DNA from: Actinomycetota bacterium
GTDB lineage: Bacteria; Actinomycetota; Acidimicrobiia; Spongiisociales; UBA5794
Reading direction: 5' to 3'
Assembly (NCBI GenBank): GCA_030123765.1
Contig: JASJXX010000001.1
Location: 21,210-85,209, forward strand
Length of the DNA: 64,000 bases
A model generated the notes under the pieces. It was not told the origin of the DNA. It searched no databases and saw only the letters and a list, made by a program, of their open reading frames with translations. The stretch's first letter is position 1. Every line of letters begins with the position of its first letter. The position numbers and the translations under genes are program-made. Of this stretch, positions 896 through 21,408 are shown in pieces.

Positions 896-2023
896 TCAAG
901 TAGCGAGAGCAAGGAACTCGCTGCGGGTACGCGCGTCGGATCGGAACGTCCCGCGCATCGCGCTGGTGACCATGCTGGACTCCTGCTTCTGGACGCCCCG
1001 CATCATCATGCAGAGATGTTTGCCCTCCATCACGACCCCCACGCCGTAGGGGGCGAGAATGTCCGCGAGGGCGTCCGCGACCTGGTTCGTGAGACGCTCT
1101 TGCACCTGCAATCTGCGAGCGAACACGTCCACGACGCGCGCTATCTTCGACAGTCCGATGATCTTCTCCTTGGGCAGGTACCCGATGGTCGCTTTCCCGA
1201 AGAAGGGGAGCATGTGATGCTCGCACATCGAGTAGTACTCGACGTCGCGTACGACGACCATCTCGTTCGCGCCCTCTGCGTCGAAGAGCGCTCCGTTGAC
1301 GACATCCTCAACCGAGGACGTGTATCCGCTGGTGAGGAAGTCCAACGCCTTGGCGACCCGCCGGGGCGTCCGCTGGAGCCCCTCACGGTCGGGATCCTCC
1401 CCGATCTCGATGAGCTGGTCGCGGACGATTGCTTCCAACCTGGGCGCGTACATGCCCTCCACGTCATCAAAGTCAGGGACGGCGCTGGTCGTGTACGGGG
1501 TTGAGAGCCTGATCGCCACGTGGGGAATGACCTGCGAATCTTCGGTGACCAGGGACTCCGCGATCTCGCTCGCGGTCCGCCCCGAAGTGGGGTGCACCCA
1601 CCGGGGAGCAATCTCGGCGATGGGGACGGCGATGTACGCTTCGCTCTCCGCGCCGGGGTCCGGGAGCGACCAGCCGTCGTACTCCTTCGCGAGGACACCG
1701 TAATAGATGACATCGAGGTCTACGGTGCGGGGCGCGCTCGGATCGCTCGAGCGTTGACGTCCGAGATCGTCCTCGATTCCGTGCAACCGCTCGCGTAGCG
1801 CCTCAGGGTCAAGCGTCGTCGTGACAAGAACCGCAGCGTTGTAAAAGTCAGGTGCGCCGGCGGGACCGCCAACAGACTTGCTCTCGTAACATGTGCTCAC
1901 TGTACGTACCGTTATGCCTGGCTGTCGGCGGAGATGCCGGATCGATTCCGGCAGGCACCGTTCCTTGTCCAGATTGGATCCCGCAAGGATGACGACCTCA
2001 ACCGGATCTTGGATAGGTGGCAT
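896..2023 (-). CDS. folK/folE: Bifunctional fusion of HPPK (N-terminal, ~1487-2023) and GTP cyclohydrolase I (C-terminal, ~896-1486)
   Basis: A single 375-aa ORF. The N-terminal half carries the HPPK motifs ([10 protein letters not shown]...[10 protein letters not shown]...). The C-terminal half carries the FolE motifs ([19 protein letters not shown]...[17 protein letters not shown]...RLQVQERLT). No stop codon separates the two halves. Confidence 0.8.
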
Positions 2024-3872: not shown

Positions 3873-4874
3873 CTACTCAGCCAGCTTGCTGCACACCGTC
3901 TCGGTGATCTTCGCTGCAACGAGGTAGGGGTCCGCGTTTGCGTTCGGGCGACGATCCTCGATGTAGCCCTTCTGATCCTGGTTGACCATCCACGGGATGC
4001 GCACCGAGGCGCCTCGGTCTGACACGCCGTACGAATACTCGGACCACGGCGCGGTCTCGTGCATGCCTGTCAAGCGGCTCTCGATGCCGGCGCCGTAGAC
4101 CGCTACGTGCTCATCAGGTTTCTCGCCGAGCGCCTCACACGCAGCAATGACTGGGTCCCAGCTCTCGCGCATCGCCTTCGTTGAGAAATTCGTGTGCATG
4201 CCAGCGCCGTTCCAATCGCCCTTGACCGGCTTGGGGTCCAGCGTTGCGGAGATCTCGTAGTCCTCTGCGATGCGATAGAGCAGCCAGCGAGCCAGCCAGA
4301 TCTCGTCGCCGATGGCGACCGTGTCGATCGGACCGATCTGGAACTCCCACTGGCCGATCATCACCTCGGCGTTCGTGCCTGAGATGGCAAGACCGGCCTC
4401 CATGCACGCCCACGTGTGCTCCTCAACGATGTCACGGCCCCATATCTCGTCCGCGCCGATGCCGCAGTAGTAGCCGCCCTGGGGCGCGGGGAAGCCGCCG
4501 ATCGGCCAACCATGCGGACGGCCATCCTTGAAGAACGTGTACTCCTGCTCCATGCCGAACCACGGCTCCTGATCTCCGTACTTCTCGAGGACGGCAACGG
4601 CGATAGCCCGCGTGTTCGTCTCATGCGGAGTCATGTCGACATTGAGCACCTCGCACAGGACAAGGATGTCGTTGCCGCCGCGGATCGGGTCGGGCACGAC
4701 CTTGACGGGGCGGAGCACGCAGTCGGATTTCTCTCCTGGCGCCTGCTCCGTCGATGAGCCGTCAAACGCCCATATCGGCTGCTCGGCGTCATCGGGGATC
4801 ACTTTCGTCTTGGATCGCAGTTTGGCGGTCGGCTTCTGACCATCGATCCAGATGTACTCGGCGCGATATGGCAT
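3873..4874 (-). CDS. glnII: Glutamine synthetase type II (eukaryote-like, 333 aa)
   Basis: MPYRAEYIWIDG...GIGADEIWGRDIVEEH...NGAGMHTNFST; the length and motifs are typical of GSII. Confidence 0.9.
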   Translation of the reverse strand: MPYRAEYIWIDGQKPTAKLRSKTKVIPDDAEQPIWAFDGSSTEQAPGEKSDCVLRPVKVVPDPIRGGNDILVLCEVLNVDMTPHETNTRAIAVAVLEKYGDQEPWFGMEQEYTFFKDGRPHGWPIGGFPAPQGGYYCGIGADEIWGRDIVEEHTWACMEAGLAISGTNAEVMIGQWEFQIGPIDTVAIGDEIWLARWLLYRIAEDYEISATLDPKPVKGDWNGAGMHTNFSTKAMRESWDPVIAACEALGEKPDEHVAVYGAGIESRLTGMHETAPWSEYSYGVSDRGASVRIPWMVNQDQKGYIEDRRPNANADPYLVAAKITETVCSKLAE

Positions 4875-4953
4875 CGTGTCTCGCTTTCAGCGGTGCTCTC
4901 TTCTCACCGGCACGCGGCGTGCCAGCTATCGTCCGACAGGATGGGCGGACGCG

Positions 4954-4991
4954 GTTTCACTGTAGTAAAGGGAGTGTGAACGCTCTGTTAC
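4954..4991. promoter_or_regulatory. Candidate GlnR operator: four pentamers at 11-bp phase (bottom strand GTAAC-n6-TTCAC-n6-TTTAC-n6-GAAAC)
   Basis: Read directly in the 187-bp divergent glnII/glnA2 intergenic region. The actinobacterial GlnR box is gTnAc-n6-GaAAc. glnR lies about 1.4 kb downstream. Confidence 0.5.
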
Positions 4992-5061
4992 ATCACCGAC
5001 CTGAGAGTGACCAGTCGCCCAAGAGTCAATACGATGGCAGCTACCGGACAGTGGAGAATGT

Positions 5062-6390
5062 ATGGAACGCCAGAAGGAGTATGTGCTCTCGACAGTGAAG
5101 GAGCGGGGTATCCGCTTCATCCGCCTGTGGTTCACGGACGTCCAGGGCTTCCTCAAGTCGTTCGCCATCACCCCCGCCGAACTCGAAGTCGCGCTCGATG
5201 AAGGCATGTCGTTCGATGGCAGCTCTATCGACGGGTTCGCCCGCACCCACGAGGCGGACATGCTCGCTAAGCCGGATCCCGCGACGTTCCAGATCCTCCC
5301 GTGGAGAAGTGGCGACGCTGGCGTGGCACGGATGTTCTGCGACATCGTCACCCCCGAGGGGGAGCCTTTCAGCGGTGATCCTCGCAACGTGCTGCGGCGC
5401 AACCTCGAGCGCGCCGCCGAGCTCGGTTACAGCTTCTACGTTGCACCGGAGATCGAGTATTTCTACTTCGAGGATTCGTCCGAAACCCCGAAGGTGCTCG
5501 ACAGGGGCGGCTACTTCGATCTCACGCCACTCGACGTCGCCCAGGAGTACCGGCGTTCCACGATCATGGCCCTTGAGGCGCTCGGCATCCCTGTGACGTT
5601 CAGCCACCATGAAGTCTCGCCATCCCAGCATGAGCTCGACCTTCGACACACGGACGCGCTCACGATGGCGGACAACATCATGACGACACGCCTCACGGTC
5701 AAAGAGGTCGCGATGGAGCACGGGATCTACGCGACGTTCATGCCCAAGCCGCTCGAGAAGTACGACGGGTCGGGCATGCATCTCCACCTCTCCTTGTTCC
5801 AGGGTGACGAGAATGCTTTCCACGACGAGGCGGGTGAGTACGGGTTATCGAAGGTAGCACACGGCTTCATTGCCGGTCTTCTCAAGCATGCTTCCGAGAT
5901 CACTGCCGTGACGAACCAGTGGGTCAACTCCTATAAGCGCCTTGTGAGCGGATTCGACGCCCCGACCTTCGAGACGTGGGCGAGGAACGATCAGAGCGCA
6001 CTCGTGCGCGTGCCCGCAACGAAGAAGGGGAAGATCGATTCGACACGGATCGAATTCCGCTCTCCCGACCCGGCGTGCAACCCTTACCTCGCACTCTCCG
6101 TGATCCTCGCCGCCGGCCTTGCCGGAGTCACGGGAGCCTACGAGCTGGCGCCCGAGGCCGGTTCGGACGTACTGAAGATGTCTACCGAGGAGCGGCGAGA
6201 AGCCGGGATCCGCCACATCCCGCACAGCCTCATCGACGCGATCACCCTCATGGAGGAGTCCGACCTGGTGCGCGATGCGCTCGGTGACCATGTGTTCTCC
6301 TGGTTCCTCAAGAACAAGCGACGTGAGTGGGCACGGTACGAGCAGCACGTGTCAGCGTACGAACTGAGGGAATTCCTACCGGTGTTGTGA
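5062..6390 (+). CDS. glnA2: Glutamine synthetase type I (GlnA2-like, 442 aa)
   Basis: MERQKEYVLSTVKERGIRFIRLWFTDVQGFLKSFAI...; the N-terminus closely matches GlnA2-type GSI, with the full GS catalytic-domain length. Confidence 0.9.
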   Translation: MERQKEYVLSTVKERGIRFIRLWFTDVQGFLKSFAITPAELEVALDEGMSFDGSSIDGFARTHEADMLAKPDPATFQILPWRSGDAGVARMFCDIVTPEGEPFSGDPRNVLRRNLERAAELGYSFYVAPEIEYFYFEDSSETPKVLDRGGYFDLTPLDVAQEYRRSTIMALEALGIPVTFSHHEVSPSQHELDLRHTDALTMADNIMTTRLTVKEVAMEHGIYATFMPKPLEKYDGSGMHLHLSLFQGDENAFHDEAGEYGLSKVAHGFIAGLLKHASEITAVTNQWVNSYKRLVSGFDAPTFETWARNDQSALVRVPATKKGKIDSTRIEFRSPDPACNPYLALSVILAAGLAGVTGAYELAPEAGSDVLKMSTEERREAGIRHIPHSLIDAITLMEESDLVRDALGDHVFSWFLKNKRREWARYEQHVSAYELREFLPVL

Positions 6391-7040
6391 TGTACGTAGC
6401 TCTCTATCCCGAATCGCCGTCCGCCTCTCTGACCGGGGCCCTCATCGGTGCGGGGTACCAACCGGTGCCGATCGCCGACGTTGCCGACGCCGGGCGGAAG
6501 GAGCCCTCCACCGGGTGGGCCGCCGCAGTCGTTGAGCTGGGCGACAACCCGGACATGGCGATCGCCGTTGCGAGAAAGCTGCGTGATGAGTACGACGTCC
6601 CTGTTCTCATCGTCGTCGACCGCACCCTGACGGGAGACCTGGCCGACAAGGACGGCTTCGATGACTTTCTCCTCACCCCCATCGACCAGGTAGAGCTGCG
6701 CATCAGACTGTCGAGGATCGGGGGGAGAGAGCTCGAAGCCACGGACGACCCTGTCCTGCGCTTCGGCGACCTCGAACTCAACACCGCCACTTATCAGGCG
6801 TACCTCGCGGGGAACCCCGTGGACCTCACCTACATGGAGTACGAGCTGCTGCGATTCTTCGTTGAGCACCCGAACCGAGTGTGGAGTCGCGAGCAGATCC
6901 TCTCCAAGGTCTGGGGCTACGACTACTTCGGAGGCTCACGCACCGTAGACGTCCACGTCAGGCGCCTCCGAGCCAAGCTGAGTGAGGAACGCGCCTCGTG
7001 GATCACGACCGTGCGGTCCGTCGGCTACCGCTTCGGATAG
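6390..7040 (+). CDS. glnR: OmpR-family winged-helix regulator, GlnR-like (atypical receiver domain)
   Basis: C-terminal YEYELLRFFVEHPNRVWSREQIL...TVDVHVRRLRAKL...VRSVGYRF OmpR/PhoB DNA-binding domain. ATG at 6390 overlaps the glnA2 stop (TGATG). Confidence 0.75.
   Translation: MYVALYPESPSASLTGALIGAGYQPVPIADVADAGRKEPSTGWAAAVVELGDNPDMAIAVARKLRDEYDVPVLIVVDRTLTGDLADKDGFDDFLLTPIDQVELRIRLSRIGGRELEATDDPVLRFGDLELNTATYQAYLAGNPVDLTYMEYELLRFFVEHPNRVWSREQILSKVWGYDYFGGSRTVDVHVRRLRAKLSEERASWITTVRSVGYRFG
6985..7037. repeat. Direct repeat copy 1 (~53 bp), covering the last 16 codons and stop of glnR
   Basis: tcgtggatcacgaccgtgcggtccgtcggctaccgcttcggatagcggaccc recurs at 7968-8020. Confidence 0.75.
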
Positions 7041-7130
7041 CGGACCCGTCGCCTGACAGCAAGAGATGAGACGAGTCACAGGCCGTCTTGGGATTCTCCA
7101 TGCGGTCCGATGCCAGCCGGGGGTTGCGAG

Positions 7131-7967: not shown

Positions 7968-8020
7968 TGCTCGTGGATCACGACCGTGCGGTCCGTCGGC
8001 TACCGCTTCGGATAGCGGAC
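7968..8020. repeat. Direct repeat copy 2 (a duplicate of the glnR 3' end)
   Basis: Identical 53-mer to 6985-7037. The minus-strand ORFs ending at 7003 and 7978 share the C-terminal peptide ...GSAIRSGSRRTARS, which confirms the duplication. Confidence 0.75.
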
Positions 8021-8109
8021 CCATCGGCCGTCACTCCGAGCTGAGTTCTGAGATCTGTCGCACCCGTCGCGTACATTGACCATAGAGGACATGAGGAGAG
8101 GAACCGCGC

Positions 8110-20634: not shown

Positions 20635-21408
20635 CTAACTCAGGTGAACCTCTGTATCTTCCTCCGCCATGCCCGATGCAAACACTACCGCGCCATCGCG
20701 AGAAAGCTTGGTCAACTGCACTCCAACCTGGTGGACCGCTGCACGGCGCAGGTCTCGAGGGATCTCCGCATAGACGACATCGACCACGTCACCGATGGTT
20801 CCGGCGCCGCTTCCGACGGCGGCAACTATCTGGCGCTCGCGTTCCAGCCGGTGCTCGATGTACCCGCTGATGGCCAGACCAGCATCATCCATTGCGTCGC
20901 CGTGACCCGGCTCGATCCTCCCAACGCCGAGATCCTGCACCAGATACAGGCTCTCGAGATACGCCGTCGCGTCCTCAATGATCACGGTGGAGCCGCCCAT
21001 GATGTGATCTCCGGTGAACAGGGTGTCACCCCATCGAAAACAGAGGTGGTCCGGTGTGTGGCCGGGTGTGTGGACCGCGAGTATCTCGCTGTCACCAAAC
21101 GAGACCTCGGCTCCGTCTGAGAGGGTGCAATCGGGGACGAAGTCGGGACCCGGCCCGTACCCGTACACCGGCACGTTGAGCGTCCCGGCGAGAGAGTTCG
21201 CGAGAGGGGCGTGGTCGGGATGGGTGTGTGTCACAACCACGCCGACAGCCGTCCGCTCTCCGATCGCTGCCACGATCGCTGCGGCGTGCACCTCGATGAT
21301 CGGTCCAGGGTCGAGGACCAGCACCTCTGATTCACTCGCGAGCAGATACGTGTTCGTGCCCGGGCCCGTGTACAAGCCTGGATTCGGGGCGAGGATGCGC
21401 TCGATCAT
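20635..21408 (-). CDS. MBL-fold metallo-hydrolase
   Basis: THTHPDH motif; 257 aa. Confidence 0.75.
   Translation of the reverse strand: MIERILAPNPGLYTGPGTNTYLLASESEVLVLDPGPIIEVHAAAIVAAIGERTAVGVVVTHTHPDHAPLANSLAGTLNVPVYGYGPGPDFVPDCTLSDGAEVSFGDSEILAVHTPGHTPDHLCFRWGDTLFTGDHIMGGSTVIIEDATAYLESLYLVQDLGVGRIEPGHGDAMDDAGLAISGYIEHRLERERQIVAAVGSGAGTIGDVVDVVYAEIPRDLRRAAVHQVGVQLTKLSRDGAVVFASGMAEEDTEVHLS

Follow-up and report, generated by a model that had tools for sequence, protein, structure and literature searches.

The glutamine synthetase genes glnII and glnA and the ammonium transporter gene amtB form the classical core regulon of the nitrogen regulator GlnR (PMC3561978), and in Streptomyces coelicolor these three genes carry GlnR boxes for which the sources give the consensus gTnAc-n6-GaAAc-n6-GtnAC-n6-GAAAc (Tiffert 2008, via PMC10704036; PMC3561978). 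As for the features of these boxes, 6 nt separate one 5-nt box from the next (11-bp phasing), mostly in two successive 22-bp boxes that give four sites; they usually run in the coding-strand orientation of the gene; the adenine at position 4 of the 5-nt box is reported to be irreplaceable for GlnR binding (Wang 2015, via PMC10704036); and the consensi vary by species, that of Streptomyces venezuelae being GTnAC-n6-GTnAC (PMC10704036), so that strict alternation of a- and b-type boxes is not universal. At S. coelicolor glnII, the boxes fall within -66 to -9 of the mapped transcription start (PMC2691820), while in the Mycobacterium tuberculosis GlnR-RNA polymerase complex four GlnR domains are placed head to tail around -35, with box b2 downstream, on a scaffold from -64 to +13 (PMC10235972). 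Here, we describe a predicted operator of this type in the genome of an uncultured bacterium of the class Acidimicrobiia, for which a literature search found no work on GlnR. The window, that is the whole stretch of DNA that was analyzed, is 64,000 nucleotides long (positions 21,210 to 85,209 of contig JASJXX010000001.1, assembly GCA_030123765.1), and the element lies at 4954-4991 of it, between glnII and a divergent pair formed by a second glutamine synthetase gene (hereafter glnA) and a regulator gene (Table 1).

We read this 38-bp element as the predicted operator of a GlnR-dependent glnII promoter, and assign to this reading a probability of about 0.82. On the bottom strand, it is composed of GTAAC, TTCAC, TTTAC and GAAAC, separated by agagcg, actccc and tacagt; every spacer is exactly 6 nt, in agreement with the original prediction of four pentamers in exact 11-bp phasing, and adenine occupies position 4 in all four boxes. 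The same prediction presented the site as a near-textbook a-b-a-b match, which was overstated: box 2 has the a-like form nTnAC and not GaAAc, and since box 3 is a-like too, with GTAAC (a) at one end and GAAAC (b) at the other, the order is a-a-a-b. Similarly, the site was said to be centered 70-80 bp from both start codons, which is true of its edges, 79 nt from the glnII ATG and 70 nt from the glnA ATG, whereas from its center the distances are about 98 and 90 bp; the intergenic region shared by glnII and glnA is 187 bp. Regarding the flanking genes, the original assignment was borne out, the three being glnII, a type I glutamine synthetase and an OmpR-family regulator; the name glnA2, given to the second of them, was a guess, and this glutamine synthetase is of the GSI-alpha type.

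Within the window, which has a G+C content of 62-64%, a pentamer search allowing up to 3 mismatches returned this site as its sole match, against 0.00 expected from 100 shuffles. A 38-nt position weight matrix (PWM), made from 64 orthologous sites upstream of glnII, scored it at 47.1 bits, compared with -8.8 bits for the runner-up among ~128,000 positions, a gap of 56 bits; the PWM scan found no second operator site in the 64 kb. An AmtR-type or palindromic operator was ruled out, the repeats being direct and 11-bp phased.

Regarding the promoter, 125 distinct site-bearing promoters were anchored on their last box and aligned. An (extended) -10 hexamer of the form CAnnnT begins exactly 10 nt past box 4, with A at +12 in 113/125 and T at +16 in 109/125; it is often preceded by TG (T at +8 in 73 promoters, G at +9 in 87), and C comes first in most orthologs. 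No proper -35 element was recognizable in this comparative alignment, from which the -10 elements were taken, a strict-rule consensus promoter scan of 4800-5150 having given no match. With the hexamer set as -12 to -7, the operator spans about -60 to -23, its repeats run in the coding-strand sense of glnII, and the transcription start is predicted near 4932; placed in this way, the predicted operator matches the arrangement seen in the structure of GlnR with RNA polymerase, and it agrees as well with the -66 to -9 range of the boxes at S. coelicolor glnII.

In the mechanism that we propose, four copies of the regulator encoded at 6390-7040 would line up head to tail on the four direct repeats, in the coding-strand orientation of glnII; the bound proteins would fill the place of the missing -35 and would bring RNA polymerase to the weak -10 hexamer CATCCT, and glnII would thereby be activated under nitrogen limitation, likewise to the activation of glnA, glnII and amtB by canonical GlnR in Streptomyces and Mycobacterium. 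What we infer here is that GlnR binds, that it activates and does not repress, that nitrogen is the signal, and where transcription starts.

The predicted glnII leader has features of its own. A 9-bp hairpin (CTGGCACGC ... GCGTGCCGG) occurs at 4906-4926 of the bottom strand, a few bases past the predicted start, and orthologous glnII leaders retain a hairpin of 7-9 bp in the corresponding position, although its sequence differs among them; a conserved CCGCTGAAAGCGAGGAAC follows it, just 5' of the glnII start codon. Folded per sequence, 95 leaders had a mean z-score of -0.99, versus +0.47 for coding-region controls; RNAalifold found no consensus on the leader, MAFFT not having registered the variable hairpins. 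The operator itself was also considered as an RNA element, and this was rejected because it lies upstream of the predicted transcription start; an Rfam scan of 4700-5200 gave no match.

As for conservation, the footprint sample consisted of 80 related Acidimicrobiia genome loci, with GlnII 69-87% identical to that of the window. The four-box element was found upstream of glnII in 65 of them, ~90-145 nt before the start codon. Over 64 sites, the boxes follow the consensus G[A/T]AAC, TTCAC, G[T]nAC and G[A]AA[C/T], with A at position 4 in 64/64 for each of the four; box 2 extends with its flanks to GTTCACA (G11 62/64, T12 64/64, T13 64/64, C14 63/64, A15 64/64, C16 63/64 and A17 62/64). The flanks A6, G11 and A17 are conserved around boxes 1 and 2, and the third spacer varies freely, at ~0-0.4 bit per position. 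When ~600 kb of related loci were scanned with the PWM, the above-threshold sites were solely those upstream of glnII. The divergent layout of glnII and glnA-glnR is kept in 47 of the 65 site-bearing loci; the other 18 keep the site upstream of glnII although glnA and the regulator gene are not adjacent, which indicates that the site belongs to the glnII promoter and is no by-product of the region shared with glnA.

Candidatus Actinomarina and its relatives (loci L077-L080, ~30-34% G+C) lack an intervening glnA, so that glnII and the regulator gene are immediate divergent neighbors. Upstream of glnII, L077 and L078 have a three-box remnant, GAAACaattatTTAATaattctGTAAC, and in L079 and L080 the first two boxes alone remain (GAAAC-n6-TTAAT).

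Concerning the protein expected to bind the operator, the original prediction assigned the gene at 6390-7040 to GlnR, and sequence comparisons with solved proteins support this. The closest solved structures are those of Saccharopolyspora erythraea and M. tuberculosis GlnR (PDB 8HIH and 8HML/8HIG), matched with 126, 124.5 and 111 bits, followed by MtrA with 80 bits; a profile of 40 orthologs gave 141, 130 and 125 bits for GlnR versus 92 for the next best. The DNA-binding domain is 53% identical to that of S. erythraea GlnR; among the GlnR residues listed as DNA contacts in PMC10235972, 12/14 are identical, the differences being K153 to M and N214 to S, and 4/6 of the residues that contact the beta-flap of RNA polymerase are identical to those of M. 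tuberculosis GlnR. The recognition helix is invariant in 40 Acidimicrobiia orthologs, which matches the conservation of the operator motif. A Foldseek search against the PDB returned the two-domain OmpR/PhoB fold, a comparison that did not discriminate GlnR from PhoP, PrrA or MtrA, and no GlnR model was present among the best 25 of the 39 NCBIfam families matched; the top name, NblR, was far below its cut-off and was not used for naming. Domain scans found no histidine kinase genes among the open reading frames (ORFs) within ~7 kb of the regulator, and the next gene after it is convergent, according to public gene calls.

The 3' end of the regulator gene coincides with an exact 53-nt direct repeat, present at 6995-7047 and 7970-8022, 975 bp apart, which duplicates the last 14 codons of the gene, the stop codon and 8 bases after it. 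Between the two copies, a segment of ~920 bp contains, on the bottom strand, an ORF whose 235-aa product is membrane-like; no DNA similarity to this segment was found in any related locus. It resembles a lineage-specific insertion by which the end of the gene was restored.

In the window, tblastn detected neither amtB (query, a metagenome AmtB) nor glnK/PII (query, an E. coli PII sequence). Because the window has no second site, no amtB and no PII gene, public metagenome contigs were scanned for AACANNNNGTTCACANNNNNNNNAYNNNNNNGWAAY, and 120 loci were returned. Of these, 45 were low-scoring chance matches, mostly in AT-rich contigs, and were set aside; the 75 high-scoring sites were upstream of glnII (53 loci), of a 474-aa GSI-beta glnA (8 loci; TIGR00653, 651 bits), of amtB (1 locus; TIGR00836, E 7e-63), or in another or unknown context (13 loci). 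Hence, 62/75 precede glnII, glnA or amtB, and the expectation of the original prediction that the motif would recur upstream of other nitrogen genes held for GSI-beta glnA and amtB in metagenome contigs. A co-oriented amtB match is unlikely to arise by chance among the ~60 matches not located at glutamine synthetase genes, with a probability of ~0.02 by our own estimate, which takes roughly one amtB per few thousand genes. As for the eight GSI-beta glnA sites, four are divergent from a GSI-alpha glnA, with the regulator gene detected in three of these; three have no detected GSI-alpha glnA or regulator alongside, purA being divergent in two of them; and one is on a contig too short to judge its context. 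The GSI-beta glnA promoters retain the n10 spacing, to a TAnAAn hexamer.

A few of the other metagenome sites deserve a description. The site at L158:97-134 (45.8 bits) is directly followed by an apparent internal frame of a membrane protein without a start codon, and the contig may be chimeric. The sites at L142:160-197, L093:358-395 and L193:1156-1193 are related four-box sites of the form TTAAC..TTCAC..GTGAY/GTAAT..GTAAY; they lie 40-60 nt upstream of genes for homologous secreted proteins of ~237 aa with a C-terminal membrane-anchor-like tail, on contigs with 55-57% G+C, and the one representative searched (L142) had no NCBIfam match.

Several points weigh against the reading of the element as a GlnR operator of glnII, some of them by favoring another binding protein or another mode of action. 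The evidence for a regulon comes from other contigs, the window itself holding no amtB, glnK or second site, and in 15 of the 80 related genomes glnII is not preceded by such a site. The receiver domain of the regulator has diverged far beyond that of known GlnRs: Pfam GlnR_1st (PF21695) scores 13.5 bits for the window protein, with a cut-off of 27, and matches 23/40 orthologs weakly (best E 1.7e-5), while PF00072 (Response_reg) matches 0/40. For dimer stability and activity, GlnR needs a conserved Asp that is not phosphorylated (D50 in S. coelicolor and Amycolatopsis mediterranei, D48 in Mycobacterium smegmatis); the corresponding position here is Glu49 (VVELG), it is E, Q, V or D in the orthologs, and the conserved receiver Thr and Lys are replaced by Val and Thr, respectively. 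In the AlphaFold model, the N-terminal part is nonetheless predicted with confidence (pLDDT ~90) as a receiver-like alpha/beta fold; with a GlnR-like DNA-binding half and a degenerate receiver, the protein is best called a divergent regulator of the GlnR lineage. Turning to the identity of the binding protein, box 2 is not of the b type GaAAc, and the sequence GTTCACA of unit 2 matches 6/7 bases of the Streptomyces PHO core GTTCACC, and a near-identical four-box site (GTAACacagcgTTCACactcctTTAATctccctGTAAC, n10, TAAGCT) is located at L200:1684-1721 (minus strand) upstream of pstS (TIGR00975, 386 bits), so that sequence alone does not separate GlnR-type from PhoP-type operators. Besides, at glnA and glnII of S. 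coelicolor the region bound by PhoP overlaps the GlnR boxes (PMC2691820), and MtrA is cited in PMC10704036 as binding GlnR boxes. Nonetheless, it is improbable that the element is a PHO-type operator with a PhoP/PhoB-like or other OmpR-family protein (e.g., MtrA) as its main binder in place of the adjacent GlnR-like one: a single unit out of four is PHO-like, whereas PHO boxes repeat GTTCACC-type units; the 75 high-scoring sites include 62 at nitrogen genes versus one at a pho gene; and most genomes have, at this very locus, a gene for a GlnR-like regulator with conserved GlnR DNA contacts. Both the set of genes carrying the site and the co-located GlnR-like gene favor GlnR over PhoP, and the L200 site probably represents an operator of the PHO type from a different organism; this contig has 59% G+C and an otherwise different gene content. 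PhoP or MtrA may compete for the site as a second level of control.

GlnR represses some targets in other actinobacteria, and a regulator bound at about -60 to -23 would occlude the -35 region and could in principle repress, blocking RNA polymerase and keeping glnII off. For this promoter, such an outcome is quite improbable: a -35 that could be occluded is not recognizable, and the -10 hexamer is a weak one, as is typical of activator-dependent promoters, which makes repression unlikely; the same geometry is activating in the solved GlnR complex (PMC10235972), glnA, glnII and amtB are GlnR-activated in the species studied, and the identity of four beta-flap contacts out of six argues in the same direction. 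As for a chance arrangement or a non-functional remnant, all that speaks for it is how common AC dinucleotides are in general, and the expectation of 0.00, the 56-bit gap and the occurrence in 65 genomes and >60 metagenome contigs with variable spacers leave it next to no probability.

A different question is whether the operator of the glnII promoter acts on the other side as well. There, the GSI-alpha enzyme has archaeal and Bacillus-type glutamine synthetases as its best solved relatives (E 1e-130, compared with 1e-66 for M. tuberculosis GlnA1), and its stop codon overlaps the ATG of the regulator as TGATG at 6388-6392, which suggests translational coupling of the two genes; the pair is kept in ~47/80 related genomes. 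A predicted promoter precedes the pair (Table 1), and 50/78 loci with a divergent glnA have a TACGAT-like hexamer at a distance of 38-40 nt from box 1, versus 2/55 loci without this gene. With respect to this promoter, whose transcription start is predicted near 5042, the operator is at about -88 to -51 in reverse orientation, and the -35 begins 15 nt beyond the site. The original prediction suggested control of both glutamine synthetases. We regard control of both sides, in which the same bound GlnR complex would also regulate glnA-glnR and hence its own gene, as a tentative extension, compatible with the glnII operator reading and somewhat doubtful as it stands. The shared intergenic region with its frequently kept divergent layout, the constrained distance from box 1 to the glnA -10, and the four metagenome loci that keep the operator by the GSI-alpha/regulator pair with a GSI-beta glnA replacing glnII all speak for it. 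Conversely, the direct repeats point away from glnA, whose near-consensus -10 TACGAT and -35-like hexamer at 17 nt do not have the look of an activator-dependent promoter; the spacing on the glnA side varies by +/-1 nt, whereas that on the glnII side is fixed; and the operator is clear of the -35 and -10 of glnA, so that simple repression of this gene is unlikely.

By analogy, the GSI-alpha synthetase and the regulator may constitute a self-contained nitrogen-sensing module, in which the feedback-inhibited synthetase would set the activity of the regulator by direct contact. The idea, which we consider a long shot, derives from the TGATG coupling, the loss of the phosphorylation-site residues, the lack of a kinase gene within ~7 kb and the failure to detect a PII gene in the 64-kb window. 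If it were true, the shared operator would complete a loop by which glnA-glnR regulates itself, besides driving the expression of glnII, glnA and amtB, and the system would parallel that of Bacillus, where glutamine synthetase controls the unrelated MerR-type GlnR and TnrA, reinvented with an OmpR-family protein.

Table 1. Features of the glnII/glnA-glnR locus, in window coordinates; promoter positions are predicted
Feature	Position	Strand	Details
Predicted operator, four 5-nt boxes with 11-bp phasing	4954..4991	-	Reads GTAAC-n6-TTCAC-n6-TTTAC-n6-GAAAC towards glnII
Box 1 (distal), GTAAC	4987..4991	-	Predicted -60 to -56 of the glnII promoter; orthologs G[A/T]AAC, A4 and C5 64/64
Box 2, TTCAC	4976..4980	-	Predicted -49 to -45; most conserved box
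Box 3, TTTAC	4965..4969	-	Predicted -38 to -34, over the usual -35 position; closest relatives have GTTAC
Box 4 (promoter-proximal, b2-like), GAAAC	4954..4958	-	Predicted -27 to -23; orthologs G 62/64, AA 64/64
Predicted -10 hexamer of glnII, CATCCT	4938..4943	-	Separated from box 4 by 10 nt
glnII, glutamine synthetase type II, 333 aa	3873..4874	-	NF041605, 625.6 bits (cut-off 500); gene for which the operator is oriented and phased
Predicted glnA-glnR promoter	5007..5035	+	-35-like GTGACC 5007-5012, 17-nt spacer, -10 TACGAT 5030-5035
GSI-alpha type glutamine synthetase (glnA; earlier named glnA2), 442 aa	5062..6390	+	TIGR00653, 456.8 bits (cut-off 429)
GlnR-like orphan OmpR/PhoB-family regulator, 216 aa	6390..7040	+	Best solved relatives are GlnR; Trans_reg_C 98 bits

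Elsewhere in the window, a single 375-aa ORF at 896-2023 (minus strand) combines an N-terminal folK domain (aa 10-140) with a folE domain (aa 197-373), and represents either a fusion of HPPK and GTP cyclohydrolase I or a pair of genes taken for a single ORF.

In conclusion, as judged from its sequence and that of its relatives, the element is a known kind of switch, the GlnR operator, predicted here in a class where it was previously undescribed, with local peculiarities that comprise the a-a-a-b order with a dominant GTTCACA, a regulator without the hallmark Asp, and its co-transcription with a GSI-alpha synthetase. The GlnR system would in this way extend to a deep branch of the Actinomycetota with its four boxes, with b2 between -35 and -10, and with its core regulon of glnII, glnA and amtB, and the PWM is ready for predicting nitrogen regulons in metagenome-assembled genomes. 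A regulator of the GlnR lineage devoid of the hallmark Asp would imply that GlnR can dispense with this residue; moreover, nitrogen sensing by GlnR is still an open point in the well-studied species (PMC10704036), and the usual co-transcription of the regulator with the GSI-alpha synthetase suggests a testable route by which the signal could reach this orphan protein.

Comparing the locus with known systems, the glnRA operon of Bacillus subtilis likewise co-transcribes a nitrogen regulator and a GSI-alpha enzyme, with an operator beside the operon; the likeness is by analogy only, the regulator of the window being of the unrelated OmpR/PhoB family and not of the MerR type, and the order being glnA and then glnR. 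The PHO boxes bound by Streptomyces PhoP (PMC2691820) share the architecture of 11-bp direct repeats and, in unit 2, six of the seven core bases; they differ in that the element has one PHO-like unit and that the genes involved serve nitrogen assimilation and not phosphate scavenging. The GlnR boxes of S. coelicolor are closer: both systems have four 5-nt boxes with 11-bp phasing on the coding strand, an invariant A4 and a best-conserved proximal GAAAC, and both place them upstream of glnII, glnA and amtB so as to cover the -35 region. The Acidimicrobiia boxes are distinguished by the TTCAC of box 2, with the conserved flanks GTTCACA, and by the a-a-a-b order, and, unlike in S. coelicolor, the regulator gene of the window belongs to this very locus and shares a transcript with a glutamine synthetase gene. 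Finally, M. tuberculosis GlnR differs from the window protein in a far less divergent receiver and in having the dimer-stabilizing Asp where the latter has Glu, with a full-length identity of 34%; yet, its arrangement on the amtB promoter (PDB 8HIH; PMC10235972), with four head-to-tail domains on a1-b1-a2-b2 and b2 between -35 and -10, is the one that the operator would impose on its regulator, and the predicted -60 to -23 span fits the -64 to +13 scaffold of the complex.

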